From Owenia fusiformis (lineage: Eukaryota): DNA of 64,000 nt. Numbering within the stretch: position 1 is the first letter of the stretch; every line of letters starts with the position of its first letter. The stretch lies in NCBI GenBank assembly GCA_903813345.2, contig CAIIXF020000001.1:17484001-17548000 (forward strand), given 5' to 3'. Both the position numbers and the translations under genes were made by a program. The notes below the pieces were generated by a model. The model was not told where the DNA came from and searched no databases. It saw nothing but the letters and a program-made list of their open reading frames with translations. This document shows, one piece after another, positions 4,537 through 61,500 of this stretch.

Positions 4537-4810
4537 ATCAACATCCTTCAAATCCAATTTTCAAAAAATAAATTTGAAGAAACAATAAAAGGTAAGTGGA
4601 ATTAGAAGATGGTTTCAAGTTATTACAGAAGTCAATTTGAAAAAGTCGGGTAACTTTTCACACTGGTATCCACCAGCTTAGTTTTACTTACTTTGGGAAC
4701 ATTTTGGGCCTCATTTAAAAACATAGGCCCCATTATCCCCATAAATGAGGGAAAATAATGAAATAAATCTACACTTCTCAGAAATTTTCTGATAAAAAAT
4801 TGGAATCTAC

Positions 4811-4895
4811 CTTGATTTCCACCTCCGGGGTGCTCATTCCAACACCTATCTCCATATCGACAATGTCCTTGTTGGTAAAACCTACAAACTACCAT
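4811..4895 (-). CDS. NUP42: Nucleoporin NUP42 (NUPL2/CG1), first coding exon with N-terminal CCCH zinc finger; no further exons found in the window
   Basis: [28 protein letters not shown] matches the NUP42 N-terminus (C-x-F-x-x-x-G-x-C-R-[FY]-G-D-R-C-W-N-E-H-P); donor G|GTAGAT at 4810. Confidence 0.85.
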
Positions 4896-4919
4896 CGTAG
4901 ATATGCCTTACAGCTGGAA

Positions 4920-20467: not shown

Positions 20468-23400
20468 CTAGATTTTCTGGAAGGCAGCTACATCCACACT
20501 TTGGACCTGAAATATACAATGAATTTTAATTAGTTACGGATAAGAAAATAAATGTTAAAATGGGAGTCACGTCTTACTTCCCAGTACAGTTAATTCTTGA
20601 ACAATACTAGACATAAGCAACGCCAAAGCGTAGCAAATCCCATCGAATGGCCATGGCTGGCATTTTTACAAACGAAGTATATAGCAAAAATCGAAAAATA
20701 ACACACAAGAAATGGCCACCATTATAGCCATTATAGGCGTGTAAAGGCCACCATTTTTCAAGATGGCTGCCATGTGCTCCTTCGATACCGATTGGAGACT
20801 TCAGAAGAGTTTCCCATAGATGACCATTATAGCATTAGAATGGTTAAAATACTTACAAAATCTTCAAATGCACATATATTTTCTTCCAAGAAATCAGTTC
20901 CAACTTTGTCATCCTCTACGACAGCAGCAATCTGAAGCTTCTTAATACCATAGCCAACTGGAAGCAGCTTAGCTGAAACACATACAACTAACAGTTAGCT
21001 CTGCATAAAAGGAACACCTTGCACATTTGGTGAAATAGATAGTTCTTCATAACGGGTTTTTATGATTCAGCCCACCTACAATAGGATTTACTCAATAAGT
21101 ATAGGGCTGTTACACATAATCGATAGTGCATTTTATATTGATTCCACGCATACAATATATGTAATATACAGTATATGAAAAGAGTACTCACAGGCACCCC
21201 AGAGGAGACCATCCTTTTGAACAGACCGCACCAGTTTCTCCATCTCTGCCATGTCAGTTTCATCATCCCAAGGTTTCACATCCAGAATAATGTTTGACTT
21301 GGCAATAAGAGCAGGCTCTGTAATAAATGTAAAGATTTCATGTTATGTTGCATGTTGGAATTTTCAGAACATGTTTTAGGATCTACGTCAACACTAAAAA
21401 TGTTTATCAAGAATTATTTACACAAGCTCAATCAATCTTGTAAACATGAAATATTCTGATCCCCGCAAATTGTAGTCCACCTTTCGATTGATCTAAATGG
21501 AGACCTTATTAAAACTATTTTCTTCACACCTTAATACTTCATCGGGCAAATAAAACCCAGTGAGGTGAATAGTCCATAGAGAACAATAATTTTACATGTT
21601 TCATATACACATTCTTCAAAACAGTGCTAACTTTAACTACCTAGTATCTGTAAATGTCTGACATAGCTAAGATTCATTTAAATTGTGAATCATTTCAATA
21701 TTTAAAAGAAACTTTCTCAGTTATAAACACGAACTTAACTTACTTTTTCCCTTCTTTTCTTGGTATTTCTTGACAAGGTCAGCTTTCTTTGCCTCCAATT
21801 CCTCATCTTCGCTCTCATCACTGCCAAAGAGATCAATATCATCATCGCTATCATCATCTTCATCAGCTTTGGATGGTGCAGCTGCCTTCTGCCAGTAAAG
21901 AATGAGAATAGAACAAAAATATATAAATTGTCTGTCTTAAAGTTTCATTCTAAGTATCCGCCCTTCACCCTTTATATCCTCCTACATGATTTCTAAGGAG
22001 TCTCTGCAAGGTTAGCTTGAGTGCTATTGTATTTTTCTTTCAGATTATGTATATACTGCTGGAATTATACTGGGAAAATATTTCCTTAAAAACACTTATT
22101 TTTGCTCGATCCAATCCACCTTTTAATCTTTACCATTATGTATGGACAAATAAACAAGATGATTCTATCATGATTCTTCCTCAGTTCATGGGTTAGGTGG
22201 ATCATTGGGAAGCAAGGGAGGTGTATTACCGAATAAGGGAAATAGATCCAACTAAAAGTGAAAAAGCGAATGACCAATTTCAAAATCAACCCCAAAAAGC
22301 TTACAGGTACAAACAGGGATATCGACCAATGGGTCATCTGACCATCTGAATATTTACTTAAAAATATGATTTGCACAGTTGATGGTATGATGTAGGCGTA
22401 ACTGCTTCTAATAATAAAGGCAGACTTACAGGAGCGGCGACAGCTGGTGGCTTGGTGCCACTGGCACTCTCTAGGGCAGCTACACGGCTCGTAAGTGCAC
22501 CAATCAGAGATCTCAGATCAGCAGCAACTGTGACACAAAAGATGAGAAACCGGAGTAAATTAACAATTTTACACTGAAAGTAATTTATTTCTATATTTGG
22601 CAATGTTTTTTTCTGAAATCATTTTTGTCTGAATATATATAAATTGACAACAAATGAGTTATTTAGTGTCTTACCTAGTTTTGATAAAGCCCTCATTAAC
22701 CCCCCCCCCCCCCCCTACGACAAATCTCCCTCTTTCTCTCATGTTCAAGTTGAAAAGACGGAAGGGTCAAGAGACTTGAAGCAAGACCATGCCTTACCTT
22801 GTCTTAGAGCTTGGTTTTCCTGTTCCACATTGTTCAGCCTGTTGATAACCTCGCTATTATCAACTCCTACACCAACAGCAAGTCCTTGACCCTACAACAC
22901 ATTAAGAGATCTAAATTGAATCAACCAAACCAACTGTACAAAAATATTGTTGCCTTAAGAAGCTAGGATTCTGACAATATAATGCACATTCTATGTGCAC
23001 ACAAACGTATGGATGCAAGACATATTATTAAGTTTCCATATAACAACATGTCATGATAAACCTTAGAGTTAGTAACTCATATTTAAATTAGCCTGTTGTT
23101 ACATCTAAAATTAAGTTGACTTCAAGAAACTTATATTACATTAAACAATAATTACATAAAACTATTGTAATAAGATTTAGACTTAGAATATCAAAGCAGC
23201 TATTGCTTATCAAAGCCATCACCCTTAAGAATCACACTACTACAAACAGCACATTAAGTACAGGCCAGGGTAAATTAAACATAAATAAAGTACTACTTTA
23301 CAAATGATGAATTGAGAAAAATCATATAAATATCAAGGAACATAGTTTTATTCTCAACTCATCATATCGGCATTTTTAGGTGTGACTAGTAATTAACTTA

Positions 23401-36959: not shown

Positions 36960-37657
36960 AGATCAAATTCTGTTTGATAAGAGATCAAATTTTGTTTTCA
37001 TGTAGCTATGTGAATTCAAATCAAACTGATTCTATGTCTGATAATAAATTACACTCTGTGTCTGAGTTTGATTAAAAATCAAACTGTGTTTCTATGTGAA
37101 TTCAAATCAAACTGTGTTTCTATGTCTGATTATAAATTACATTCTGTTTTTAAGTTTGATATAATCAAACTGTGTTTCTATGTCTAATAATAAATTACAC
37201 TCTTAAGTTTGATTAAAAATCTGTGGAAGTTTGATTAAAATCTTTGTTTCTATGTCTGATTATAAATTACACTTTTTTCTAAGTTTGATTAAAAATCAAA
37301 CTGTTTTTTCTATGTCTGATTATAAATTACACTCTGTTTCTAAGTTTGATTCTAAATCAAACTGTGTTTCTATGTGAATCAAAATCAAACTGTGTTTCTA
37401 TGTCTGATTATAAATTACACTCCTAAGTTTGATTTTAAATCAAACTGTGTTTCTATGTGAATCAAACTGTGTTTTTTTATGTCTGATTATGAATTACACT
37501 CCTAAGTTTGATTAAAAATCAAACTGTGTTTCTATGTGAATTCAAATCGAACTGTGTTTGTAGCTGATTATAAATTACACTCTGTTTCTAGGTTTGATTA
37601 TAAACCAAACTGTGTTTCTAAGTCTGATCATAAATCAAATTCTGTTTCAATGTCTGC
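36960..37657. repeat. ~30-bp minisatellite in the 3'UTR of the cystin-like gene, overlapping its last codons
   Basis: Unit like TCAAACTGTGTTTCTATGTCTGATTATAAA, roughly 20+ copies with 25-30 bp variants. Confidence 0.9.
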
Positions 37658-40600
37658 GATGAGCTGTTCTTCTGAGATATCATAGTTTATGGATGGCTTC
37701 TTACTGGAAACAAACAATTTAAAGTAACATTACATTTTGCATCAAACCATATTTGAATCTTATATATCATGATTCAATCAGATCATATTTCATAATACTA
37801 AGACTTTACAAACTTTTAATGTAAGTATCATGTCTATACGCTATATTATTTGGTGTATATTATACCAAGTTGATATTTTTTCATTTATACAGGTGATTTG
37901 TGTACCTTTTAGTTGCAGATACACCCCTTGTATTACTTGAATCTTCTAAAGCACCTACTGTAGTGGAAGCTAAAAATAAATATAGAATATTTATTGAGTA
38001 CACTCACACCCCTGAGGGTCAGGTACAAGAAAGTGTAATACATAAAAAGAATATACATTGATTAGTAAGCATAAAACATGTACCATATGGTAACCATGAA
38101 AAGCATTGGAACATGGCCAATCACAATATTTTTGAGACCATAAAGCATTTGTGGGAAAACTGTAGACCTCGCTTGCAATGTTTTCAACCTAGATATCTCA
38201 GATTCTAGAATATTTAGAATGACTTACTTTTTGCAGGACTACCTCCATATGATCCGAATTCATCCTATAATAGACCAAACAATAGATATAAAATATCAAC
38301 TATAACATATAAGAATAAGCCTTATAGCAATCTTATAGGCAATAAGCCTTATTACATCCCCCATGTCATTTATCTACTCTCTCGTGATCCGGGTATGAGT
38401 CCAACCTTTCCTTCCAGCTGCATTTTTAAATAACAATTAAAATGCTATATCAACTATATATCCAATTAACTCCTGAAGAAAAAGCCTCTCCATGTCATTA
38501 TTCTCGCTTGATTTCCACTTTATTTTTAAAAAAGTACAGCTATGCATAATGCATCTTTAACTTCAGTTACAATTGTTCAGAAATATTAATGGGCTACAAT
38601 CTGTTAGACAATCTGTATTTGAAATTGGATGTTTTATGAATATAAGAATTTTTCCAGTTATAGGTTATTCAAATGAAATTCAGACACTTTTTTCATCAAA
38701 ATCAGCAAATGAATATATTACCATTTAATTTATTTGGCATCCCATTAAACAAACTAACACTGTTAATATATATCTGTTGATACATGAAAATAATTCCTCA
38801 TTTTCTCAATGTGAAAAAATCAAGAGTTATACCCTGATTACAGATAATGCCTCTTTAAGTCATGTACTATGGTCTGGAAATTACCATGCTAATGAACAGA
38901 TAATGCCTCTTAAAGGGTAACGCTTATTGTTTAGCAAATCAAATGCTCGTTTTTGGTGTTGCTCACCATTTAGTACAAAATAGAATCTGGGACCTATTGC
39001 GTAAGAGGTATCTGTGCTACTGCTGAGCTATATGGTGGACTACTAGTATAGATCACCATGCATTTATCAATGGGAATTTTTTATTTTGATGATCAATTTT
39101 ACCTTTGATTGCTGAAGTTTCAGGATCTTCTGTCTGTGTTTAATTGAGAAATTGATATCTTGATCTACCTATACCGAGTATAAGTACAAAGCATGGTCTT
39201 ATGAAATGTTCTACTTATAGTTGAAACTATCAGTGACACAAAAATAAACTATTTTAAACTAAACTAAAACTAAAACAAAACGTTTTGGACTAACACAAGG
39301 ATTTATATTTGTCCATGAATCCTTTGGATAAGTCACACACCCAATCTCTCAATATTTACAGATTGACATGAAGACGATTTGAATAAACTGGAATGTACCG
39401 AACTCCCCTAAATAGACTGATCCAGTGGACTTGTCTGGAGTCTGTAACATGGTCTAAAAACACCATGCTAATTAATAGATAATGCCTCTTTAAGTCAAGT
39501 AACAATAGTCTGGATGCCATGCTAATTAAATGAACAGATAATTTCTCTTTAAGTCATATAACCATGGTCTGGAAAATCTTAAGCCTCAATGAGACCAATG
39601 AGCTCCATTTTTATAAGATCATAACAATATACTTGGAATAAGCAATCAATAAATGTTACCATGTTAAAGGTTCAAAACATTATTTAATCATTGATTATGA
39701 TCTGAGGCAAAGATATATGTACAATGTAAAAATGCCTGAAAGACACCAGTGTTATGGTGATATAAGGAGAGTGGGAGTACTCATCGTGCCAATACCTACT
39801 TTACATTATTTCCCATAAGGGTTGATACATGTTCAACAACTTATAATTTCAAGATTGGAACGAATATAGAAAATCTTGTTATTTCAAAAAACAAATGCTG
39901 TTTCATCGATAACAAGAGGTATTTGAAATGATGTTACAAAAACATTTTAAGTCACGTAATAAGAAGATTTATGGGTAGTTTGAAAATATTGTTATTCTGG
40001 TACTAACATTCCAATCAAATAACATGGTAACATTGAGAAATTAATATATATTTTAAATCCTTCAATCTACCCAGAAATAAATGTTATGCTTTTAGGGTAT
40101 ATGTGGCACCCTATACTCCCACCCAGAAATAAATGTTATGCTTTTAGGGTATATGTAGCACCTATTCCCTTTTCCCACTACAACCTGTAAATATGTTTCA
40201 TTGATTTTAATTAAAAAAAGAACTTTCTTTTGATCTCAGACATTATTCTGCCATCTTATACTCTTTGGAATTATCTGAGTGGGATTTTACAAGCAAGAAA
40301 TAAGAACAACGATGAAAATATTGGCTTAATTATAGGCTCTCAGGCATGCTATTCATCAATCTCATCCCATTCAATTTGATGTCTTTGGAAGCTTGTATTA
40401 ATTGGTAACCTTCATGGATTAGAAATGGAATCTCAATTAATTTCACTTTCTCACTTAAGTTAGCAGAATAAGTTTCAAAATTGAAAATTCTGCTTGTACA
40501 TTTTTAATTCTAAATGGTCAGTTTGAGAGAGTTATCACTATACTGGATGTATTTATAGCCACAGAAGATAAAAATCAATTGCTCTGTCCTATAATTGTAT

Positions 40601-43600
40601 TGATTGTATCACACTTCCCATCATTTCCGAGACAATGAACTTGCCAAAGGTAAGGTTATAAAAAGCCAAATTGTAAGTCAAATAATGATTTAAAGAGGTA
40701 GTATCTGCTAGAAGGCACAATTTGAACTACTTGGTATCTTTACATCGATTTGCCAATGGCCAGGTACCAACTCCTACATAAATGAGGTTAATTTAACTCT
40801 GAATGGCAAAAAATCATTTTACTAGTTTAATATCATTAATTACTATCAATTTCTTGGGTACTTGTATCTGTATTTTGACCTTTCAAACAATTTGTTATTA
40901 TGGCATTCACTTTAAATCATGAAATCAACATTTTCAGACAATCTGGAATGTCATATTGTCCTTTAGAATAAAGCCACATTCAGTCCCTACTGATCAATAG
41001 CTTCTGTTTATCCCATAGTCTCCTGTAGAAGATGGTATTCTTTAAGTTTCTTTTATAGTCTCTTCACGTTATGCTCATTTATGTAATTTATTAGTGTTTC
41101 ATACTTACATCCTTTTTATTGGCAGCCTTGAATTTATTTGGATCGAAGCCTTGGATTATATTCTGAAAAAATAAAAAGAGGAGGCTTATATATAATATAA
41201 ACTTGACTATTAGATGTATTGCTGCAGCTTTTCATTGGATAAAGTTATTTAAGGTGTCTTATAAGACATCATCAGTTGGAAGCAATGTTATTAAAAACAT
41301 TTTAAGTGAATTTATATATTGCTTGTGACACAGATACAAATTATATAAAACTTGAAATCAACTTTAGAAAGTAAGTTCAAAGTTGTATTTGCCATTTCTC
41401 TGATGGCAGCTTCAAGTATAGACGATAGAAAGAATTAGGTATTTGAACCTTGATAAAAGAATTAGGGTTGCAAGGGTATAACATTGTCATGCTCCTGATT
41501 TATAAGATTGCATGCCTTTTTTCCTTTGCTTCCCCTTGAAACCACTTAAAACAGCCTTTATTTGAGCAATGAAAGGCTATAAGGTAACAGTAAAGGTCTA
41601 AAATTCTTATACACAAAAGCTTCATTGAAGAATTATTCTCAACATACCTGTGAGATGTTGTAGATTGAACACAATTGATTTTGAAATGTTTTGCTCACTA
41701 AAAATTGTTTGTACTTATCTAAGGCTATACTGTTGTCAAATAATGGCAAAAAAGTATTTAAAAATTCATCACAATAACAATGGTTTTATCATGCTATGAT
41801 GGTGACAAAAAATGTAAATCCATATTTATTATTTTAGAATCTTTAAAATGCAAAACAGTTTGACTGATGGACAAATTTAAAGAATATTCCTTCATCACTC
41901 ATAGAATCATTCTGTATTAATATGCTATTCTGGAATAAATTTGTTGATTATAATAAATCTACATAAAAAAACCAAAGGATCCACCATTATCACTTTCAAA
42001 ATGGTTGGGTTGCATTTCTAGTGTGACCCTGTAATATCATTTGTCAGAGACAGAATTATTATATTGTATTAAGATTTTAGTACTGCTTTAATAGCCATGT
42101 ATCACTAGAAAACATTAAATAACTATAGATCTACCTTATAGCACTAAGAATTATGATTGTCTAAAGTGCAGATAATCTCACAGAGAGCATAAAATACTGA
42201 GTAGAATATCACAATAGATCTATAGTAAAAGAAAAAACATTTCTTATTTTGCCTAATATTGTTAATATACAAAAGGCTTTAACAAGATTATTCAAATATC
42301 ATTATATATTTGTATTTAGGACACTAAGCTCAAAATGGACAAGGTAACAACATAACTTATGAAGACAAATGTCTCCACCCTTTAAACATCATAGTCTATT
42401 TAAACAATTGTAAAACTGGTTTACAAGTTCAAAAAGTCTTTTTAGACTGGCCTAAAAAATAAATACAAAATCAATAAATATGAGGTAAAAAATCCTGCCA
42501 CAACACAGTGAAGTTCACGGGAGGTGCATGGTACACAGTCTTTAGGCATGACTATAGCACAGTCTGATCATTAAAGGCTATAGTGCAGTTTCATGCCTGC
42601 CAACATTCTGTTTTTTATTTGCTAGTTATGATGCCTTGTAAACATAATTACAGGAATATGATATAATATTCATCCAGTCTATTATATTTACAATGCAACT
42701 TGGTAACAGAGTGCTCTTATAAGGAACCTTATCTTAGAGTAAATAGTTGCAAACAAGATCAGTTACATGAACACTTTGATATTGATACCCTTATCAAGAA
42801 ACCTGTGAATTAAATCACAATGTTACACGGGCCATAGCCAGCTTTTGGCAGGGGGAAGGGGTTACTTTCTAAAGAATTCCAGAGTGGGACCACTTTTGAC
42901 ATCATTGGGCCAAAAATGGCCAAATCACTTGAAAAGTGCTCAGAATGGTGAAACACTGCAAGATTTTGTAAGGATTTTTTCTACAGGCCTGTTACCTTTA
43001 GGAACTTTTCTATCCTCTCTATACATGTAACTTTACTACATGTATATAAAATTAAAGAATATTTTGGAAATAAGAAAAGAGGATGAAATTTCCTATTGCA
43101 AGGGGAATGTTGACAAGAGGAATGGAACGCAGTCAATACAATTACCATTACCAGTTGGTGTCACACATTCTCATGAAATAAAGTACATTCTTCAAAATCA
43201 AATCAATCATTCAATGAACTCAAATATTGTTAAAACACAGCAGGTTTTTCTTAGTGACATGTGACATATCTTATATAAATATAGTACTGCTGTGCTGTGA
43301 TCAATTTGTAAAATTCTTTCATCCAAACTCATTCGTCATCTGTAGCCATTTCTATGCAATATTAATTAGAAATCAAAATTGAATTATGTAATTCCTTTGC
43401 TTATACACTAGAACCAATAATTTTATTGATTTACACAGTTGCTCAAACTTAGCCAAACCAGAACTATACATGAAATCACTTTTAGAGAAAGATCAATCTG
43501 ATAAGAGGCTAAAGTCCATGTATGATTGTAGGTAACTTGGGGGCTTCCGTGGATTATCATCAATAATTTAGCCTTTGTTAGTATGCATGATCAAAATAAT

Positions 43601-44827
43601 CAATGTTTCTGAGGATCAAAATAATCAATGTTTCAAGGCTTGAATTCCTTAGCAAAGATTAGTGGCAAAGTATATCACACTTGATCTGAAATACTAAACA
43701 GTTTGGGAAATTGTGATCATAATGCTTTTTGGTAATTAACTAAAACACAGTGAAACCTGGGAAGTGGAACACCTCTAGAAATGGAACACCTCTGTTAATT
43801 GAACACATGGGAAGTGGAATACCTCTGTTAGTTGAACACATGGGAAGTGGAACACCTCTAGAAATGGAACACCTCTGTTAGTCGAACACTTTCAGAGTCC
43901 CAATACCAACTGACTTAATGTTAAATGAACCTAAGTGTTCCACTTAGACAAGATTCATTGTACTGCATATAAGATATACCAGCCCCCATAATTTTAATTT
44001 TCCAAACTATGCTTTTAGATACTGAACCTCATTTGAATATACATGTACAGTGAAACATGTTTAGTAGAACAAGAACCTCTAGAAGAAGAACACCTCTGTT
44101 AGCGGAAACCTTTTCAAGAGCCCCAAGACCAACTGATTTAATGTAAATAAACCTATATAAGTGGAACATCTCCCAACTAGAACACTTGTAGAGGTACCAA
44201 AGTTGTTCCACTAAGACAGGTTTTACTGTAGGCCTATACATAATATTTTAAACAGTAATTTAACATCCATCTGCTTTATACTGTTAACCTATAAGTGAAT
44301 AACTTCAAATGTTTACTCACCTCTTCCAGTTTCCAATCCTCTGAATTGCGATCCCATTGGCTAGTTGGTTTCTCTGACCCTAATATTAAATCCTGCTCAT
44401 TTATATTCTCCCGATTTAAATTCTGTTTAGCAATTTTTTGAGCATAAGACTCTGGATATTCCTCCTGAGAAAGTTTTGAATTTTTATTGTTGTATTCCAT
44501 GAGGATTTTCTCCTCTTCCTCATCAGTATCCCAGCTTTTTTGAGAAGTCTTGTCATCAGTTTCCATATTGTCTTTAGGTTGGGCTATATCTGTAGCCCTA
44601 TTTGACTGTTTAGTTGATTTTGAATAATCTGTATTAATTGCACTATCCAAATCCTTTTCTAACTCATTCGCACTTTCTTCGTCATACACATTATTTTTTG
44701 ATTTCTCATCCGGTTTTATTGTACATGTCACTGTTTCTTCACCCCAATCGTCAGTTGTCTCAGAATCACTACTTTTGATTGTTTTCCCATTTCTTGGAGA
44801 TTGTCCTTTTGAACCTCCAGATCCCAT
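37628..44827 (-). CDS. Uncharacterised 243-aa acidic protein with N-myristoylation motif and cystin-1-like C-terminus; exons 44321-44827, 41109-41162, 39103-39133, 37906-37969, 37628-37703
   Basis: Starts MGSGGSK (myristoylation consensus); all GT-AG with consistent phases (732 nt); ends SKKPSINYDISEEQLIADIETEFDL*. The 31-nt exon is the least certain. Acceptor at 44878 and an upstream non-coding exon donor at 45039. Confidence 0.8.
40069..40165. repeat. ~52-bp direct duplication
   Basis: ACCCAGAAATAAATGTTATGCTTTAGGGTATATGT.GCACC occurs twice. Confidence 0.7.
44048..44228. mobile_element. Tc1/mariner (Tigger-like) MITE; diverged sister copy at ~43748-43965
   Basis: TA|CAGTGAAACATGT ... ACAGGTTTTACTG|TA; internal GAACACCTCT repeats. 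Confidence 0.75.
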
Positions 44828-45054
44828 TCCTACCAGCTTACCTCCGTTTAATAAACTCCACTTTTATTATAACTCAGCTGTAAAATATCCTCAGTTAAAT
44901 CTTCCATTAGAGCCAATTTGATCCTAATACAATCCAAAAGAATTCCTCTATTATCAAGTAAGACGTGTATACATTCTAAATTCCATATCTCCAAAACACT
45001 GTAGTCTAAGGTAAATACCACTTCACATAAAACTCTCACTTCTGACTAGTGTAC

Positions 45055-46052
45055 ATTCTAATAGCAACAAAGGTAAATAAGAAATTAAACAATGTTTTAA
45101 GCTTTTCTAATCGAACTAGTGCACTTTTTCACTTTAAGTTGATTCAGTCTTCTAACCTTATTATTGATTGAATTAACGTATCCAACAATATGTTGACTTA
45201 ACCAACCAATGCAATTGATCTAATTCCCATTGTAACTTAAAGTTCAAGTTCCAATTTTCTTAATTCTTTACCATTGGCTATATGTGTTATCAATGACTAG
45301 TAACTAAAGCTACATGTTTATAGCTGGTGTTATTGGCAATTGAGTGATAATAGGGAGCTAATATGGATGATTTCTTCAGTCAGGTTGTCACGGTAACAGT
45401 TTTTTCAACAACATGTTCCATTAAGAAAAGTTATTTACATTAACAAGTGGTACCACTCGCCAGTAATATATTAGAGAGTGAAAACTTAATCTAAACTAAA
45501 CTAATGTAAATCCCTTAACTTGTTGCCATGGTGACTAATTCTGCCCATAACATGCTCAATCATGGTGCACATTGTATTTTCAAGTCAATAATCTGACCAC
45601 AGCATCACACAACAGGATTCTCGGTATTATAGATTTTTGCACTTGAAAGAGCTTTGAAACTATTAAATAGATGGCTCTCACTTCAAAGGTTCAAGGTTTA
45701 TACTTTCTTTGTTAAATAATTCCTTATGATACAATAATGTTTGGTTGTAGCCAGGCATAAGGCAGGCGACGTAACTGCCTCCCATAATTCTACAGAATTC
45801 TTGAAATGAACATGAACTTCATTTAGTTATTTTTCTATTATTAAAAAACTTAATTAAAGGGTTCATATTTCGTTTGTTGGGGTTTGCAACTTTCTAAAAT
45901 TGCTGTCTTATAAATAGACATTTTTGTCCCCCAAAATTCAAAAAATAAATTGAAATTGATGACATTATGGTTTCCCATATGAAATCTAAGATTAACTCGT
46001 TGAAATCTATACAAAGGAATACCATCAGGCCAACATATGTCACAATGGCAAC
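45055..46052. promoter_or_regulatory. Cluster of RFX X-box-like motifs upstream of the cystin-like gene
   Basis: GTTGCCATGGTGAC (45522-45535), GTTGTCACGGTAAC (45384-45397), GTCACAATGGCAAC (46039-46052), weaker ATTCCCATTGTAAC (45223-45236) and ATTCTAATAGCAAC (45055-45068). Confidence 0.7.
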
Positions 46053-49523: not shown

Positions 49524-52500
49524 TCATTTTATTCCATACTGCTTAGCTATATTTTCTATTTCCAATTTGGTGTAATTTGTGGGAGGTTTAGTTTTCAAAC
49601 TTGACAAAATGTCCGTCAAAACTGAAAAATAGACATAGCAATTGCATAAAATATATAAACATTTTGGGTTTATCCATTAAGTTTCACCTGATTTTAAAAG
49701 TTAAGTCAGTATGAATTGACCTTGACCTTGACTTTGAATTTTGATATGCTTACTGAAAGGCATCCGTGTTCAACTAATATTTTACTTGCCGACTTACAAT
49801 ATAAATTTCAATTTGACATCATCGCAGCTTCTCCTTAAACAATGTTCTCAATTGGATGCAAAATTCATTTTTCACAATTAAGTTCAAAATAGGTCAAAAT
49901 ATGCCTAATTTTTTCATAATTTTTCTCATTGTGAGCATGAATTGGAATTGAAAAGTTCAAAATTGATGCTGAGTGCCCACTTAGGCTTAAATATTTGGGA
50001 ATTACTGAATATATCCGAAAGTAGTTCTACTTGCCCCATCTTATAAACACCTTAAACCATACAACACTTACCTTGTTTTTCTTGGCTTGACATGAACATG
50101 GCAATCACATCAAACCTCTGAACTTTGGAGAGAAACTTCAGGATATCTAGGGTCTCTACAACTTTACCTGAAAATGAAGCAGGCATATTTTTAGGGTATA
50201 TTATGGTTAGATAATAATTATCAGACAAAATTTCATACTACATAAATGAGTTTGAGGTTCTCAATACAGAATATTAGATCATTTTGAGTGATATCGATTT
50301 CTTCTTGATGAGTTGATATCAACACAAGTGATTGAAGCAAATGAGAGTTGACATTTGATCTAAATAAAATGTTATGAAAGAAATGATCTGATATTGAGCA
50401 TTCCATGACTATAATCAAATTGTTATTTTGATTCAACTTCCACCATATTTTAATTTTGAAGTACATATGTTACAAACAAACAAGCTTTAGTTGGAACAAG
50501 AGTACATCTCCTCTAACTTATTTGAGTGGAAGTAATAACAAAAAATAGCCAATGGATAAAGCATCTGGCCCATTCTGGTACTAATCACTCAATCTGATAT
50601 CTCCAGATGAGAGGGGTACAACATTTTAATTGTGATGATTCTCATATTTATCGCCCTAAGATGTTGAAACATTACAATGTTACATAACATTCTATTGTCA
50701 TTGCTTTTATTGTTCATGGAGTGTGTAGCAGTTTGGGACAATATTCCATATTTCTGTACTTCAGAGTTCAGACATGAGGTAGTGAATTGTACAAGTAAAT
50801 CTGATCTCTGACAAGATGAAAATTCCAATGAACTCATTCATCTAAGTGTACGAACCAAAATTTAGGATTACAAGTTAATTAAATACGTAAGGCTTGTTTG
50901 TTTCAGATTTTTGTTGAACATCATTTTGTAAAAAAAATCTTATTAGATTAAATATACATAACATTCATTGACATCCCCTCATCAGATAGATTCAACTCTT
51001 ACCTTCCTTATTGTAATCTTCTACACACTTCACTATAATACTAAACATCCCTCCATCCAGTTTATTACTCAGGACTGAAACAAAACAAAACACAGGATTA
51101 TAACTTGCAATACACTATACTGTATACACAGCAGTAGGTATAATTTCTATGTTCATAAAAAATCATATACTACATTTAGTCCTTTGGGAGTAGACAAGTT
51201 AGCTGAATGGTAAAGGAAAAATCCTGCATTAAAGTCAAAATTAAGTAAACATTGCATTCAAAATTCGTATGGCTGTCTCTCTAATTATCTCTAAATAACT
51301 TCAGAGAAATAATTTCTAAATACATGTCTACAGTACTATGTAATCTGAAAATAGAAGTGATTAAACCTGCACATCGCTCCAAAACGCAATATGTTGACAT
51401 ATATTGTTTTTACATTTTCAAGCTCTAATATAAAGTTTATGTATATAAAAATTGTTTTTTTCTGCGTAATATCAAAGAACAATCATTTAGTTGAAAAAAT
51501 AAAAAGGCGAATGCGGGATTCGAACCCGGGCCTCCCGCGTGCTCAGCGAGGATTCTACCGCTACACCACCGTATTACTATAAGGCCATAAGAAGTAGATT
51601 CTTTGTTTTGCGTCCCCTTGCTTGCACGATTTTGAGTAAATCAGAAAAAACAAACACATCCAAATAGCAATCACAAGGATCTGAATGTACCATCACATTT
51701 CTTTCAATTAGAATCAGAAGAAATGGCGGATAATTTGATGTGCGTCAAAATTGACAGTATTATTGATTACGTTGGCATACATTTTGTATTTTCTTATTTT
51801 GTACCCTTGAATAATATAGTTTAAATTATTATATAATAATAAACATAGATATGTCTTCGTAATTACTGCAAATTGGTATGTCATCCCATTTTATTCCCTT
51901 AAAATGTATACATTTCTCAGCAAACAAGTTTGTGTTTTTTCTTGAGTTTGTGTTTGTTTTCCTTGTACCCTTGCATGGTTTTGATTTTGCCAAGACGCAA
52001 AACAAAGAATCTACTTCTTATGGCCTAAGTAGTGTATGTAATTAAACGCTACTTATTTTGAATGCTATGATTCGGAAGTGACGTCACGTTCTTCATTTAG
52101 AAACCTTTCCAAAATCATATTGCGGCTCCGATCGAAGCAAATTCAATGAAAAATCTTTGAAATGACACATTTATCGTAAGTATTTCTACACAAGATTTGC
52201 CCCATTTGTTCATCATTCTATAATCTTTCATTAAGCTCAAAATGATAAAGTTCACCCCCGAAACAACCCAAGATTGCGTTTTGGAGCGTAGTCCAGCTTT
52301 AAATATAAATACATGCATGTTGTAAATGACTATACCTTTGGGGATATTTTTGGGCTTTAGCTGACTGAGAATTTTGGCATATGGAGCTATCTCAGTGGAA
52401 CCTTTCAGTGAGTTCCAAGCAGTCATGAACTCATATGGTGTAGGCTTACTGCTCAGGTGTGGTGTAGAAGGTGCTGCCTTAGGTAAACCTGCAACATGTG

Positions 52501-55500
52501 CAGACTTCAGCTTATCATTCAAGCAAAAACTATTACATTAATAAAATAATAAAAAACAGAAAGTGAAATTAAGTCAGACCCAATGTCTTTGAATGTATTC
52601 TTTAATCTAAATATACATACTTCTTTTGAAATTATTCTACATTGCTTAAACTGAACTGAAACTGAAAGACACTATACATTTTTCTTAGTAATTTCTCAAT
52701 AATATGTAACTTGACTCTGTTTAGGTTTAGAATTTAGTGAATGAAATATTTTACCTGCACTAGTTTCCACCAGAGTGCTTGCTTTTTTCACCTGTTCCTT
52801 TTGCTTCTTGTCTTTTCCAGGTGTCTTTTCTGGACTTCCTGCTCGTTTGCCATCAATACCTTTTGTTATTGTAGATTTCAATTCAGTTATTTTTTGGGTT
52901 ATTTTTCCCGGGGATTTTTTCGCCTCTTTCCTCTCATCATCTGAAGAGCTCCCCACTTCCTCAATGGTGATTTTCTTGCCTCTGGTCAGAGAAGCACTTG
53001 AGCCAGGGGACTTCATTTCAGTCAATTGCTGAAATTAGAATGTGAATCGCAATTATTATGGCATACAGTAAGTGCAAAAATATTGAAGATTCAATAAAAC
53101 ATCAAGAAGTGAAAATGACCAGAGCTCTCTCATAGCACAGTAGTTTTCCAACACTGATCCGCCCTGACTTCTACCTCATTTTCCCTTGACCTGATGATAA
53201 ATGGAATAACATAACAGTAATGACATGTTATACTGCAAATCAGTATTGTATCACTATGCTATGTGCTACATATGACTGAAAATGAACAAATGATTGATTT
53301 GTCTACCGGATATGCAGAATAATTGCTCATCTCTTTTCACTCTGACAAACTATTTAAAACTGGCTGCTGGACAAGTATCCCTGCTTTCTCAAAACAATTT
53401 TGCATCTTAAATTCCCTCCACAATTTAGTCAACTTTGAGATAAGATGAAATTTTTAGATAAGGGAAATATAATTTTGTTTTCCCCAAAAATGTTCCAACA
53501 AAATTTCATACCTTTTTGTAATACTGTTTCACCACATCAGCTTCTTTCTTAGCAGCAGAGTTCTTAGGGTCAAGTTTCAGCAATGTCATGAGATCTTCCA
53601 AACTTTCCTTATACTGCATGAGCATCTGAAATATGGAAATTTACAACATTAGGTACCAGATCGATACTTTTACATAGTCCCAAAACATAACACATAACAT
53701 ATAAGTTTGTATTGACATGTATTGACACCCAACTCATAAAATCGAATATTCTTTATTTTCTTTATAAATTAAAGCTCCTTTTCAAAATTGATGTATGATA
53801 GAGACCAATTTTCAATGTGCATGTGAACCTTTGGTCTGTGTTTTCTATGTACCAGTATATACATGATTTTACCACATTTCTCTCACTCTGACAGGTAATC
53901 TACATCTTCAGAAAGAGAACCATAATAGCTATAAACAGTCAATTAGTTTTAAGCCGGACTCTACCTTTCTAGCTTGAGCTCTCCTGAACAAAGCCTTGAT
54001 ATTCTGTGGCTCATATTTCAGCACCACCTTACAGTCTTGTTCAGCTTGTTGAGGTTTGTTTATCCTCAGGTAGCACAGGGCACGGTTAGTGTAGCTAACA
54101 GGTCTTTCTGGGGCCAGTGAAATACATCCAGTGTAACACTCTATAGCCCGACTGAAGTTACTCTGAAAAATTCAAAGTATTCAAAATTCAAAGTATGTAT
54201 ACAATTTCTAGATTGACACAATTGTGTATCATAACAATGAAACTGATTTCAAAAGAACACCCATGGAAAATATGAATGTGGTAAAGAACTATAAGGTTAA
54301 GCTTTTCAAATTAGTGGTATTTTAATTTTCTACTAATGATTTATTTCCATAGAAAAATATAAATAAAACATACATGTGTTGCAGTATTTTAATACATCCA
54401 ATATTTGTGGTTATATACACCCTTACCTTCTGTACACAGTCATTCCCCTGAGCTTTTAGGTTATCAAATTTGGCATCAATGTCCTCCCCATTCCCAGTGA
54501 GCAGATTTGTCACAGTTGAACTTGCTTTTTGAGACTCAGAAACAGCTGCCTACATTAAAAATTACATAATTTACTAGAATGCCTTTAAATGGACATTGGC
54601 CTTTCTGAAGCTGACATTCATTTTATGTTTAAACTTACATAAATAGCGAACTGAGCGACATTTAGCATCATTGAAATCTAAATCGAAAAATACGACATTT
54701 AATTTATATCTAGATTCAATAGGTGATAAACCCTAAATGAAAGCTCTTTCTACTTACTTGTGTGGTGGTGACATTTGTTGTGATGGTGGTTGATTTTGCT
54801 AATCCACTTCCAGACATTGTTGTTATCACTGGGATTTCATGCTTTTGGATAGGGGGAATTGTGGGTAGTTTTTCCCGCCATTTTGTGCCATCGAGGGCAT
54901 TAAGCATTTGGCTGCACCTGGATGAACCCTGCATGGCATTGTCAACGCTGTTGTCAACTTGGAGCACATGTTTGTAGTCGATATATGCTAACTGATATCT
55001 GAAATATAGATGAACCATAAGTAGCTCAGATTTATATGACATAAACTCTTCCATCCTCCGATCACGGGGTTTCAAAATGCAGAATATCTTCTTTCTTTTT
55101 ACACCCCACTATAAGCAGTAGGCATTTCCCCGATTAAGAACTCGCAATTTGATGTATACGTCGTCGGTGCATAATTAGATCACACGACTCAGTTTAATCC
55201 GGCGCTTCCAAATTGGTTATAGCAGGGGGGAAGAAGGAGGTAGGATTCTGGACACCTGCTTAGGAGGATGAAACTCTTTCTCATGCTATTATCTGCTTGA
55301 ATTTGCAATTCTTATCAGCTTATCACTGACCTAATTTTAAAGAAGAAGATCATGTTTGGGCGAGCTGGATTCAGCTGAGGATAAGCCAATGATCAGACTG
55401 GATAAGAAAAAGAAGAATTGATTTGTTCCTGCTGTAAGTGAACCCACTGACCTCCTCGACTTGAATCCAGGGAAATCTGCCAGCATGACTGGACAAAAAG

Positions 55501-58500
55501 CCCATCTTAGAAATTCTTTTTTAATAAATAATTACAAAATCCTGCATAATGCTATTGAGTTACAAGACTTACTTTTCCATAGTCTCATATGCAGCAGCTC
55601 TTCGTAGGAGAGGTTTCAATGAATGAGGTACGAGATCTAGAGCCTTGGAACAGTCATCTACACAACCTCTGCAGTCCCCTATCTTAGTCTTACAAGCTGC
55701 TCTGTTACTGTACAATGTGGAGATGTTCACCTTCTGTTTGTCTTTAGCTACAATAAATGGTATAACTTTCAAGGTACAACCAAACTTCATAGAAATATGC
55801 TTTACAGCTAAAAATTACTGAGACAAGATTGGGAACATATATTAGATTAGATCAAGTTATTTGAATGTAGTTTTATGATCATAACATTTTAATGAAGTGA
55901 TAAGATTTTTAACTACATTATTCCTTTACATCAATGGAAATTATATCAAGAAGGATATGACTAGAACATTAGTCACTCTGACACTGACAAGACCTGAGAA
56001 AATCAAACTCAACAGAAGTATTCTCCAGATTTGTATCAGGTTTGCACTTTACATGTAGAGGGTTATGGTACTAGTATACACTCAAGACTACAGTGGTGTT
56101 ATGGTAGAATTTATGTTATAGTGGATGGCTGTTACATATCATACCAGGTAGCAGTTTCTCAATTGCCAAATTGTACTTCTCCACAGCATGTGCATACTGT
56201 CCTGTCTTGAACAGTTCATTTCCACTTTCCTTTAGTCTTCCTACACTGGATGGCAGAGGTGGCATCTCAAACACAGGCCTCTTTAATTCATCCGTTGGTG
56301 TCTCCTCAACAACAACAGCATCAATAACCTTTTCAGTGCCTTTCTTAGGATCATTAATTTTATCAGTATCTTCACCCCTAAGACATGACATTTTAGTCAT
56401 AGCTCCTCCATCTGTTTGTTCACGTTTCTTTATAGTTCCTTCACCCTGAGATTTTGAGTCGATTTCCATAGTGTTTTCTGGCTTGTTGATTAGATCAACA
56501 GGAGTTGAACTTTGTTCTGTATTAGCATGTCCATTCACCATAGGTGGCTCAGAGGTATTAGTTGTAGCTTGAGTAGATTGCTCTTCTTCTGATTCTGAGT
56601 CACTATCCGTCTCAACTATCTGTATCTTCTTGCCTTTCTTGGTGACAACTGGACTGTCTTCTCTGAAATAGTAAGGCATGCACCGACCTTTAATAACTGT
56701 ACTATTTGATGGGCTCACATAGTGAAACAAGGCATCAACATGACAAAATGTTACCACTTTGTAAGTTATTGCAAATTGCTACAGACATTGAACTCTGACT
56801 GGCAACTATTGAACACTGTCCACAAAAAATTGGAGACTATTGTCAATATGTTACCACTTGTGGTGCTGACATAAAAACTAATTTTCATAAAATAAGGCAA
56901 AAGAAGAGGAGCCAGGACCTGGACCTACAAAAATTGAGCATTAGTTCAGATAAATAGCAGTTTTCTTTGTCCGAAAATTGTTGATGGAAAGATAAATGGA
57001 AGGACAAACAGAGGAATAAATAAAAATTTTAGAGTAAGATTAAAAAAATTAACTTATTAATTTTTCTGAATTCCACTAACTTTTTTTGTTCCTCATCTGA
57101 TTCTTCCATCTCGTCCACCTCTTCAATGACCATTCTCGTTCCTTTCTCCTTCTTCTCAGCTAGTTTCCTGTTCAGACTGGCAAGAATATCCTACAGGTAG
57201 AAGTTAAAAGGATACATTGTAAAAATGGGCAGATTTCGAGTGTACATTCGATTGTGTTGTACATATTCAATGGTTTTCAAGAGTGCATTGTTCAAATGAG
57301 CCTTGGTTCATGAAGGATTAATGCATGTATGTATGTTAAAAAATCTACAGGAAAATAAATTTCAACAAAGGAAAAATGTAGACCTAACTAAAGCACAGAG
57401 TATATGTCTCATAATTATATCTGCTGCACAAAAGGTCTGTTATCTACCTCCTATATTGTATATGGCATGCTGCGTGACTCTACAAGCATCCCAAATCTTA
57501 GGAGGAACATGTTAATATAGAGTACATCAACAATTAATTTGACAAAAAATGACCATACACTGGGTTATCTTGAAAAGTAAGCATGCATTCGGTAAAATAA
57601 TTCTTTGAAAATATCTCAATTTCTTCTTTCTTTTACAAGCAATTTTTACCTTGGCACGTTTGTTAATTGGCTCAAGGGCCAGGACCTTCTGTATATCTGT
57701 CTTAGCATTCACATAGTCCTTCTTTCCCTCTCGAGCAACACCTCTTCTTAAGAAAGCTACAATACGAAACTCACATTGCAATATGGACATCAAAATGTAA
57801 CCTCACATTGAGATAATACAACACATGATCGAGATATCAGAAATGTCTCATATAATAATAATTGAGATCTTCAATTTACAAGTAAAATTATTAATTTAAT
57901 TTCTTCCGAGTGGAATTGGATCACCACTTAAGACACTGTTACCTCCGCTTGGACCTTAAACCAGAATTAACAAACTGAATCTATAAATTCTTTTTGGCTA
58001 AATTGGCAATTTGAGGAATTTTCATCCATATTTTCAATCTGCAAAACTGAATGAACAATTTTGAATATAATATATGTCCTACCTTTTATATTATCAGGCT
58101 CGAGGCTAAGCACTGTATTGCAGTCTTTGATAGCCTCATCCCAATGTTTTAACTTCAGATCTGAAAAAAGGAACAATATGGATATCTGTCTATCAGGTGG
58201 TCAAATACTTGTTTTGAAACAAAAAGCCATGCCTCTGATTTTTCCTACAACTCAATATACCATTATAAATTTCAATAATTTCTCAGGTTACTTGTTCATG
58301 TTCAATAAAATCTTGAGCCCAGATTCAATTTCAAAAAACTGATCCAAATCCCCAGCTTTAAAATCTTAGATCTCGGATTCATTTTCCATTTCAATCCCTT
58401 AACCAGGATTTTTGGGGACAAAATCTCAACCAGGCAGTATTGAAAAATGCATCCATTTAAGATCACAGAAACATGCAGATGATTACTCAAGCTTACATGC

Positions 58501-61500
58501 CAGGGCTCTGTTGTTGAAGGATGCAGCAGTTGAAATGAGAGAGAGGCTCCGGGAATAGTATGTTATAGACTCCTCAAAGTCACCACAACGGAATGCCTAG
58601 AAAGAGAAAAATTTTGATTATTGAATGAATGAACTTCATTACATAGTCATCAGTGAAGCTGATCAAACCATAATCTGCACTGTTTGTTCAATAACTGCAG
58701 TTTAAAATGGTTAAAGCACTTTTTACATCAGCCCTATGATGACAAGATGTAACATTTCATATTATACTTATATAACATGGCAACAAGCAATTTGATAGAT
58801 TGGTTTAGAGTCCATGAATTGAATTGAATTGAAAGAGTAATATACAGCACAAAACCTATATCCAGACAACTGAGTGTCACAGAGTAATTCTAAATCAATA
58901 CAAACCTCATTGCCTTTATCCTTTTCTCTGTTTGCTTTCAGCTGTCTTTCTTCAGGAGTCATGTCTATAACAGAAGCAGACATTAAAATAAAGTCAAAGG
59001 AATTCAATACTATGTTTACAATTTGTTGTTTTTCATAAATAACACATGAGAAATTCTTGGGAACAAATGACATGTTAAATGTGTCCACACACAATTTCCC
59101 AATTGCTGTACTAATGCAATCTGGATCCATTTTACTGGAGAAAGTTGGTTAACCAAGGGTAAAGACAGAGAACATATTTAAATTGAAAAATAGTTTAACA
59201 GTTTCCATAATGATTATAAGACAAAAAGGTTGTTTTCAACGCATTGTACATTTATAAGAAAAAATCACAATGCTCACTGACATTGTAGAATGTGTATTGT
59301 TATTGTATATATTATAAATTGTGTAAACCAGAACAACTGCAACGCCAAAGCGTAGCGAATCCCATCGAACAGCCATGGATGGCATTTTTACAAACAAAGT
59401 TTATAGCAAAAATGGCAGGCATTTTTCAAAATGGCTGCCTTCTACCAAAAGTGTCATTAGACCATTTGCCATACTTATAGTATTCACATACCAAATATGA
59501 ACAAAATTGCTCCACTACTTTTTGAGTTATAGTAAAATACGTTAAAATGGCGGCTATTTTTCAAAATGGCCGCCTTCTACCAAAAGTGTCATTAGACAGT
59601 GTGCCATGCTTACAGTATTCACATACCAAATATGAACAAAATCGTTTCACTACTTTTCGAATTATTATAAAATACATTAAAATGGCGGCCATTTTTCAAA
59701 TTTTTTTTCAAAATGGCCACCTTCTACTAAAAGTGTCATAGGATAGTGTGTCATGCTTTTAGTATTCACATACCAAATATGAACAAAATCGCTCCACTAT
59801 ACTTTTCAAGTTATAGTAAAATACGTTAAAATTTCTACCAAAAGTATCATTAGACAGTGTGCCATCCTTATAGTATTCACATACCAAATATGAACAAAAT
59901 CGCTTCACTACTTTTCGAGTTATAGTAAAATAGGTTAAAATGGCGGCCATTTTTCAAAATGGCAGACATTTTTTAAAATGGCCACCTTTTACCAAAAGTG
60001 TCTTTAGACAGTGTGCAATGTTTATAGTATTCACATACCAAATATGAACAAAATCGCTCCACTACTTTTCGAGTTACAGCAAAAATCGTAAAATAACGAG
60101 TAAAGGCCGCCATTTTTCAAGATGGCTGCCATGTGCTTCTTTAATATCTACATTTCTAGCTTTATTAATGTCCTATATAATTTTTTTACATCTAAAACAT
60201 ATTGCTATTACAGTTTTACATATTGCACCTAAATTCCTGTAAATTCGGCACTAAAATGGCCGCTATTTTGAAATGCTTTCGAGCAGAACTTCTAGCCCCA
60301 TAGGGTATATGTGTACAAAATATGAACAAAATCGGGCCAACGGTATTTGAGTTATTGCCCGGACGGACAGATGGACGGAGGCGTTCCCTGTATCCCTCCG
60401 AACTTCTTTCGATTGGATAATTACCTTTATCTGATATTGTGCTGCTGATGTCACCCAGTCCTGTTTTGCTGTCTCCCATTTTTTTAACTTTCTCTTTGGC
60501 ATCTTTATCAACCTTTTCACATTCCCCCTCAATGTCAAACTTATCCCATTCGTTGTAGCTTCTAGGCTTAACAGACTTCTTTTTCTGAGATTCATTCTTA
60601 GCTGCAGTCTGGAAAAGAACAGTAGTTCACTGAAGGCATGTACAGTATTAGCATATTATCCGATAATTTGGTATTCAAAAATTTGGTTGAAAGTTCTTAT
60701 CCACTGCATTGACAAGAACATGATAAAAAATTAATGGTACACATGTATGTTTAAAATAAGTGTAGTAAAAGATCTCCTCAAAGTGCAATTGTTCATACAC
60801 ATACATGTAGGAGTTTATTTCAATAATCATGTAACCAATCATAAAGTTACCTTTTTATCAATTGGGATACTTTGTCCAGTGCCTCTAATGGGTGGAAGTT
60901 CTGGTTCCTGGCCACCATCTGCCACTTTCATTGTCTTAATGTGCATCTCTAAGTCTTTCGTCTCCTGATGCCAGTCCTTAAGTTCATTGTCGAGGGCAGC
61001 TTGTTCCTCATATGTTAAATCTGCTTTCGTTGAGATAGGTTTAGATTTCCTCAACACACGACTACAAAGTGTTATAAAGGACATAGTATACATGTACAGT
61101 ATATTTATATTTCGTAGGTTTTGAAAATGTCCTACCTAACCTAATAGAATGGATGTTGGCTCATTACTATTCTGACTACTCAGATTTCCTGTATTTTCCT
61201 GCAATGTTAGTTGGGTAAAATTTGTACTAGTTTTAGCTGATTTTTTTGTTGTTATGGGAATGAGAATGCAACATGCTCTAAACAGACAATCATAATGGAC
61301 TTCATCATTCATTGCTCTGTATTTCATAACTAATGCTTTAATCAATTTCCTGGTGAGAACCCAGGGATTTATAACAAGTTGTTAACAAATAACCTATATT
61401 TAAATAAAAAATATACAAACACATTGCCTACCTATTTGGATTGATTTCTCCTATTTTTTCCTCACATAATTGCTCCAAGTCTGGGTAGTGGCCTTCCTCC

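Follow-up and report, generated by a model that had tools for sequence, protein, structure and literature searches.

What kind of protein is encoded by the gene that lies on the minus strand at 44827..37628 of a 64,000-nucleotide stretch of the genome of the annelid Owenia fusiformis (GenBank assembly GCA_903813345.2, contig CAIIXF020000001.1, positions 17,484,001 to 17,548,000; hereafter the window)? A preliminary description of this DNA had proposed a distant homologue of cystin-1 (CYS1), the protein that is lost in the cpk polycystic-kidney mouse and is mutated in the recessive, autosomal form of human polycystic kidney disease (ARPKD), and that is still poorly understood. Cystin-1 is described only in mammals in the literature that we examined. 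No paper on an invertebrate cystin was found in literature searches, with orthology databases lying outside that search, and a hemichordate paper (PMC13554239) contains the word cystin in its reference list only. Our sequence comparisons make it very likely that the Owenia gene is a member of an unnamed bilaterian family homologous to vertebrate cystin-1 (Pfam Cys1, PF26203), and the gene is probably the pro-orthologue of CYS1. Homology at the level of the family is well supported by the sequences; that CYS1 itself, and not a vertebrate paralogue without a name, is the strict orthologue is a weaker claim.

The gene begins with a start codon at 44827-44825 and has five GT-AG coding exons, which, as had been proposed, join in phase. 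The spliced coding frame of 738 nt contains no internal stop and yields a product of 245 amino acids, two residues longer than the 243 given earlier. Its translation is identical, letter for letter, to the NCBI entry 'unnamed protein product [Owenia fusiformis]' (P0003); the gene had previously been predicted in public annotation, but without a name. The four introns measure 3158, 2844, 258 and 202 nt, with 5' ends GTGAGT, GTAAGT, GTAAGT and GTACAC, respectively, and all of their 3' ends are AG. Exon 1 (44321..44827, 507 nt, phase 0, residues 1-169) carries the predicted N-myristoylation signal MGSGGSK (44807-44827), followed by the ELEKDLDSAI helix block (residues 55-64), the EKILMEYN block (residues 106-113) and the YPESYAQK block (residues 124-131, 44435-44458). 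Exon 2 (41109..41162, 54 nt, residues 170-187) encodes NIIQGFDPNKFKAANKKD and with it the family-invariant FDxx[KR]FK block, which reads FDPNKFKAAN in Owenia (residues 175-184, 41118-41147). Exon 3 (38228..38264, 37 nt, DEFGSYGGSPAK plus 1 nt) and exon 4 (37906..37969, 64 nt, TSTTVGALEDSSNTRGVSATK) both encode unconserved linker and are placed by the public model and the reading phase only. Exon 5 (37628..37703, 76 nt including the TGA, residues 221-245) supplies a cystin-type C-terminus, with the motif INYDISEEQLIADIETEFDL at 37631-37690. The protein starts with MGSGGSK and ends with PSINYDISEEQLIADIETEFDL, as first reported, and its acidic character is borne out by a pI of 4.47 and 53 aspartate and glutamate residues versus 32 lysine and arginine residues.

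Two observations in other phyla touch this exon structure. The Lineus isoforms P0004 and P0010 differ by a 14-residue cassette where Owenia exons 3-4 sit. Among the oyster proteins (P0013 and P0016), the Magallana model P0016 contains inserted sequence precisely where Owenia intron 1 lies; this insertion resembles a retained intron and hints at an intron position shared with Owenia intron 1. In human CYS1, the end of exon 1 is at c.318 (PMC8440558).

Transcription was assessed in three RNA-seq runs that carry the Owenia species label, of which approximately 6-12 in every 100 letters were read. Over exon 1 and its 5' flank (bins 44258-45000) the RNA depth was 0.59-3.2, with the first mate always on the plus strand and never on the minus strand, an orientation that fits a minus-strand transcript, given the usual stranded libraries. 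Since reads cover position 44916, the 5' untranslated region extends at least that far. What counts against the gene model is that no exon-exon joint occurs among the 15 joints listed of the 33 in these three thin runs; all 15 fall in intronic repeats at 42856-44205, and the splice junctions are consequently not confirmed by reads. The junctions are instead suggested by the public model, the reading phase, and the cross-phylum conservation of exons 1, 2 and 5. An annotation artefact or a decaying gene would also be in keeping with the low RNA depth, with the lack of conservation in exons 3 and 4, and with the location of the last 29 coding bases inside a minisatellite. Such a reading is extremely improbable in our judgment, as the frame stays open through five exons with canonical splice sites, the reads on exon 1 are strand-specific, and exons 1, 2 and 5 contain blocks that are conserved across six phyla up to the final residue. 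A fourth run, X1, was not used as evidence because its contigs are contiguous across introns and it looks like DNA.

To which proteins is the Owenia product related? A phmmer search of P0003 against 1.84e9 representatives returned seven proteins at E<=1e-3, the query included, and the relatives come from Lineus longissimus, Liolophura sinensis, Lingula anatina, Saccoglossus kowalevskii and Sinanodonta woodiana, plus one that is unnamed. A profile built from these seven (A1) added Crassostrea, Magallana, two scallops, Ptychodera flava and Patiria miniata. The family ranges over a nemertean, molluscs, a brachiopod, hemichordates and a sea star, in addition to the annelid Owenia; no arthropod, nematode or cnidarian appeared among the phmmer or A1 profile matches, which is no proof of absence. 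In public records, the proteins from Lineus, Liolophura, Lingula, Saccoglossus, Ptychodera, Patiria, the oysters, the scallops and Sinanodonta are LOC entries labelled 'uncharacterized', with neither a name nor a described function. They are true members of the same family, sharing five collinear blocks with the Owenia protein at 22-34% identity.

An alignment of 13 full-length invertebrate members, with no vertebrate included (A3), has the invariant columns M1, G2, G4, S6, F175, D176, F180, K181, N184, Y228 and L235. Three elements, namely the N-terminal MG[STG]G.S, the FDxx[KR]FK block and the C-terminal motif YDxSEExLMxxIExEF, are each present in all 13 members, and two further blocks are less widespread ([YL]PE.YA in 9/13 and [ED][LI]D..[LIM] in 8/13). 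YPESYAQK and GFDPNKFKAAN had been put forward as blocks that define an invertebrate family; both do so, but the second is also kept in basal vertebrates.

The link from this family to cystin-1 emerges from searches in both directions. When the A1 profile, which is built from invertebrate proteins only, was run on 5.77e9 proteins, 13 proteins among 4956 candidates reached E<=10, and these were nine invertebrate members and four avian cystin-1 proteins (PF26203; 25-28 bits, E 0.65-3.8), with nothing else. The termini given earlier for cystin-1 are accurate for these birds, whose proteins start MGSGSSRRR and end (A/T)ISYDYSEEELMASIEREYCR. A mixed profile of invertebrate and bird sequences, used for sequence fetching only and with E-values that are not counted as evidence, yielded 201 proteins at E<=1, and nearly all of the 120 listed are named cystin-1. 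From the vertebrate side, 13 sequences were aligned (A4), and motifs were counted on 119. Comparison of A3 with A4 by hhalign gave a probability of 96.0 and an E-value of 4.2e-9 over 18 C-terminal columns. A hidden Markov model (HMM) of A3 reported 119/119 vertebrate sequences, scoring 28-38 bits over the cystins as a whole and approximately 31-34 bits in birds. Its match to the lungfish protein P0052 was a single end-to-end domain of 37.6 bits (E 4.4e-9 at Z=30,000), an E-value that becomes ~8e-4 when rescaled arithmetically to 5.77e9 sequences. In the reverse test, at the same Z, the A4 HMM scored Saccoglossus at 27.6 bits (E 7.4e-6) and Owenia at 17.9 bits (E 6.9e-3). Shuffle controls were run for five tests, and in each of them the real score was reached in 0/1000 shuffles. 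Pairwise BLASTP aligned Saccoglossus with lungfish over 77 residues that cover FDPxKFK and the C-terminus (E 4e-7), and Owenia with lungfish over 18 residues (E 6e-4). By language-model features, the nearest Atlas clusters were a mollusc cluster (0.94), an unnamed chordate cluster of ~222 aa (0.92) and the chordate cluster Si:ch211-139d20.3 (0.91); the last agrees in 197/256 features, and 30% of its members carry PF26203 Cys1. The hhalign result, the restriction of A1 matches outside the family to cystin-1, and the shuffle controls uphold the distant homology that had been proposed; a profile link to an unrelated family lacking a reciprocal CYS1 match did not occur.

The correspondence is visible in individual motifs. 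Vertebrate cystin-1, like the Owenia protein, is small and disordered, with an N-terminal MGSGxS signal and small residues at positions 3-5; MG[STG]G.S is found in 105/119 vertebrate sequences. Both proteins end in YDxSEExLMAxIExE(F/Y), the vertebrate form being (I)xYDxSEEELMASIEREY, and the C-terminal motif is present in 118/119 vertebrate and 13/13 invertebrate sequences, ending 3-6 residues before the C-terminus. An SKKPS stretch just before this motif in bird cystin is also found in Owenia. The lungfish protein (272 aa, PF26203) contains MGSGSSR, IDAELDRILHKY, CFDPWKFKEVNKNK and LYDYSEEELMASIEQEYC, and keeps FDPWKFKEVNK, with an FD-to-YD distance of 47 residues versus 47-74 in the 13 invertebrates; FDxx[KR]FK was produced in 44/200,000 shuffles of this protein. 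A sawshark protein (P0110, 222 aa) has IEQELDRVLAECEDW together with the C-terminus. Lungfish shares the ELDxxL and FDPxKFK blocks with Owenia, and shark shares ELDxxL. The earlier view that only the two termini had been kept was too narrow, as FDPxKFK is also shared with basal vertebrates, and ELDxxL probably is too.

These same fish sequences raise the question of whether Owenia might be orthologous not to CYS1 but to a separate, unnamed vertebrate paralogue, represented by the longer fish, shark and lungfish proteins with FDPxKFK, within a family that is still homologous to cystin-1. The sawshark protein lacks PF26203 in precomputed annotation, the second-nearest Atlas cluster is distinct from the Cys1-bearing one, and FDxx[KR]FK is kept in just one of the 119 vertebrate sequences, that of lungfish, and in none of the other 118. 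However, the lungfish protein itself carries PF26203, no species is shown with both forms, and a (T)QDxENNN block and the C-terminus are common to shark, lungfish, turtle, marsupial and named cystin-1 sequences, which look like one orthologous series. We consider a separate paralogue improbable.

Several observations weigh against homology to cystin-1 and need to be set beside the results above. Significant similarity to amniote cystins is limited to approximately 7 N-terminal and 18-25 C-terminal residues, and posterior confidence is low (acc 0.53) in the interior of the lungfish alignment. Owenia's own reciprocal score of 17.9 bits is modest and comes with a bias correction of 19.2 bits. PF26203 is absent from the precomputed Pfam annotation of P0003 and of every invertebrate member. 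The AxEGG motif is missing from all 13 invertebrate members, and the Owenia protein has no polybasic run, which leaves it with one of the three features drawn for mammalian cystin. Finally, no CYS1-type neighbour (of the KLF11/RRM2 type) was found within the 64-kb window, which is too short to judge synteny. An alternative is convergence, in which disordered proteins without common ancestry each acquired a myristoylation signal and an acidic helical docking motif at the C-terminus. In its favour, the two segments in common are short linear motifs, the remainder of amniote cystin is unalignable GC-rich low complexity, and the HMMER bias corrections are large. Convergence of this kind seems highly improbable, given that lungfish and shark have three to four of the blocks in collinear order and with equal spacing, that the hhalign E-value is 4.2e-9, that the real score was reached in 0/1000 shuffles, and that the search of 5.77e9 proteins brought up no further family at E<=10.

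The Owenia protein differs from mammalian cystin in several respects. Mammalian cystin has a myristoylated G2, a polybasic region, and AxEGG at residues 28-35, and forms a nuclear complex with necdin (PMC8440558, PMC10929748). The polybasic region, or nuclear localization signal 1 (NLS1), is drawn after the myristoylation site (PMC8440558). The Owenia protein lacks the polybasic run, NLS1 and AxEGG, and its first 20 residues include just four basic ones (K7, R12, K15 and K18), with no basic run. The preliminary description had likewise seen no AxEGG. Since AxEGG is carried by 0/13 invertebrate and 34/119 vertebrate sequences, it is a later feature of a subgroup rather than of the whole family. 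The Owenia protein is acidic, whereas vertebrate cystin-1 is basic or rich in proline and alanine; the (T)QDxENNN block of vertebrates is absent from it, but it keeps YPExYA and GFDxxKFKAAN, blocks that tetrapod cystins lack. It is encoded by five coding exons and has no Cys1 (PF26203) call in precomputed annotation. Within a family already known for its disease protein, the Owenia gene represents a divergent variant of more ancestral appearance.

Structure prediction shows short elements in an otherwise loose chain. AlphaFold2, run on the 13-member alignment, returned a predicted template modelling score (pTM) of 0.18 and a mean predicted local distance difference test (pLDDT) of 55.9, with isolated helices only, at residues 50-69, 101-115, 128-148, 177-183 and 232-242. 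These helices coincide with the conserved blocks, and the model portrays the protein as a disordered chain that bears short conserved helical motifs. Pfam scans of the full-length protein, of its first and last exons and of nine relatives found no relevant family at E<=10 in a set that did not include PF26203, and bird cystin P0019 itself got 0 families in the same scan. We dismissed weak Pfam matches to HCV_NS5a_C, DUF7711, Fn3-III_PB4 and DUF3040 (E 0.06-0.7) as noise. Two chains retrieved by a PDB profile search (E 0.29 and 1.2; a thymosin/cordon-bleu fusion and PAPS reductase) were irrelevant, and Atlas structure neighbours, all at TM <= 0.32, are meaningless for a disordered protein.

How might such a protein work? 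We propose that Met1 is removed and Gly2 N-myristoylated, as the motif suggests; a PROSITE-type myristoylation pattern occurs in 13/13 invertebrate members. UNC119A binds with high affinity where residues 3, 4 and 5 are small or medium-sized, and such UNC119 cargo is released specifically by ARL3 and destined for the cilium or the immune synapse (PMC8246649). Invertebrate members have S/T at position 3, then G, then G/S/A/T/N/Q, with S-G-G in Owenia, and because these residues are small, the Owenia protein fits the rule for ciliary cargo. It could then be a high-affinity UNC119 cargo that is released only by ARL3-GTP, i.e. in cilia, and the lipid would tether it to the ciliary or plasma membrane. 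NPHP3 and GNAT1, which are N-myristoylated UNC119/ARL3 cargoes, have the myristoylated glycine and small residues 3-5 in common with Owenia, according to PMC8246649, although they show no sequence kinship beyond the first six residues and the likeness is at the level of mechanism only.

At the other end of the protein, the C-terminal amphipathic acidic helix might dock a partner. Mouse cystin needs its C-terminal 25 residues to bind necdin, and a C-terminal fragment alone suffices (PMC3859662); because the Owenia C-terminus matches this region, we interpret it as a helix that docks a partner. Further docking motifs, lost in amniote cystins, may be represented by the middle blocks ELDxxL, YPExYA and W..GFDxxKFKAAN. 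Necdin is a mammalian MAGE gene, and the animals that carry the invertebrate family members are not known to have it. If they have none, the ancestral partner of the C-terminal helix must be another protein.

Upstream of the gene, a cluster of candidate sites suggests control by RFX. The RFX X-box has the consensus GTNRCC N0-3 RGYAAC (PMC10530576). An exact palindromic match, GTCACCATGGCAAC, lies at 45522..45535 on the minus strand, 695-708 bp upstream of the ATG, and is the sole exact match in 64 kb. Two X-box-like sites, each with one mismatch, are found at 45384..45397 on the minus strand (GTTACCGTGACAAC) and at 46039..46052 on the plus strand (GTCACAATGGCAAC). Over the 64 kb, four distinct sites have <=1 mismatch at N2 spacing, which correspond to 6 strand matches versus 2.66 expected, and three of the four fall at 45384-46052, 560-1225 bp upstream of the ATG. 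At least one exact X-box occurs in 51/200 shuffles of the 64 kb, and a single exact site is therefore not unusual. The position of the exact site and its two near-match neighbours are a suggestive lead for RFX control of the kind seen in ciliary genes, with distances counted from the ATG.

Taken as a whole, the explanation that covers the gene, its family, homology to cystin, myristoyl anchoring and a docking role for the C-terminus is likely, and ciliary localization taken alone has about an even chance. Myristoylation, UNC119 binding and ciliary localization of the Owenia protein are predicted from its sequence. A cystin homologue might also act outside cilia, as a myristoylated adaptor at the plasma membrane or in the nucleus, with ciliary targeting as a vertebrate or mammalian novelty tied to AxEGG. 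Ciliary targeting of mouse cystin requires AxEGG (PMC10929748), which is missing from 13/13 invertebrate and 85/119 vertebrate sequences; mouse cystin also works in the nucleus with necdin (PMC3859662), and the RNA depth at the Owenia locus was low in three runs. Against this stand the fit of residues 3-5 to the motif of UNC119 cargo released only by ARL3, the X-box cluster upstream and, as weak evidence, the lack of nematode and arthropod matches. We regard a role outside cilia as rather unlikely, though less so than the paralogue discussed above.

The surroundings of the gene include several further features. A minisatellite with a period of approximately 30 or 58 bp (37018..37656) starts inside the coding sequence and overlaps its last 29 nt. 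Ten minisatellite units match the terminal 30 nt of the gene at 22-24/30 bases, nothing else in the window does, and the units read in frame as IETQFDL-like peptides. Given the conservation of the C-terminal residues across phyla, the most likely origin of the array is the 3' end of the gene; the converse, that the C-terminal tail is a captured satellite unit, was rejected, as the tail aligns with orthologues to the last residue. Within intron 1, tandem repeats at 43750-44257, whose GGAAGTGGAACACCTCT-like unit measures 17 or 33 bp, reach an RNA depth of 5-72 on both strands, by comparison with an exon depth of ~1-3, and show many back-joints and loose ends. This RNA looks like that of a dispersed repeat transcribed elsewhere in the genome. 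A short element in the same intron (42734-42987) had very high depth in all four runs (10-33 in RNA and ~10,800 in X1), and a translated stretch that resembles it is located at 11677-11967; the element is probably a high-copy dispersed repeat.

Farther away, all on the minus strand, we noted a reverse-transcriptase open reading frame fragment of a retroelement (42-1259; RVT_1, E 1.8e-31) and an exon with an N-terminal CCCH zinc finger (4632-4907; zf-CCCH_4, E 4.5e-7), which we take to resemble the start of the nucleoporin NUP42. An acidic stretch at ~21745-21888, found as a chance tblastn match, looks like elongation factor 1-beta/delta. A multi-exon gene at ~52100-61100 has exons resembling tetratricopeptide repeats (TPR) and one exon matching RPAP3_C (E 1.8e-3, which falls short of the Pfam cut-off), and is RPAP3- or SPAG1-like. 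If SPAG1-like, it would be a cilia-related neighbour.

A broader reading is that cystin-1 did not arise in vertebrates but is an ancient protein of bilaterians, ciliary, held by a myristoyl anchor and under RFX control. The ancestor would have had five short helical docking motifs, while amniotes would have kept only the lipid signal, part of ELDxxL and the C-terminal helix, and the original partner of this helix would not have been necdin but perhaps a single ancestral MAGE/NSMCE3 protein. We offer this tentatively, as something short of an even bet. The occurrence of the family in protostomes and ambulacrarians marks the lipid signal and the C-terminal helix as the ancient parts of cystin, which are probably central to its function, and AxEGG and the polybasic NLS as late additions. 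It also reveals the further conserved motifs YPExYA and W..GFDxxKFKAAN, one of which is still present in basal vertebrates, and implies an older ligand for the 'necdin-binding' helix. Ciliated marine larvae would provide an experimentally tractable system for the cystin family. If cystin is indeed an ancient bilaterian protein, the cpk/ARPKD pathway has an older core that would be open to study in marine invertebrate larvae.

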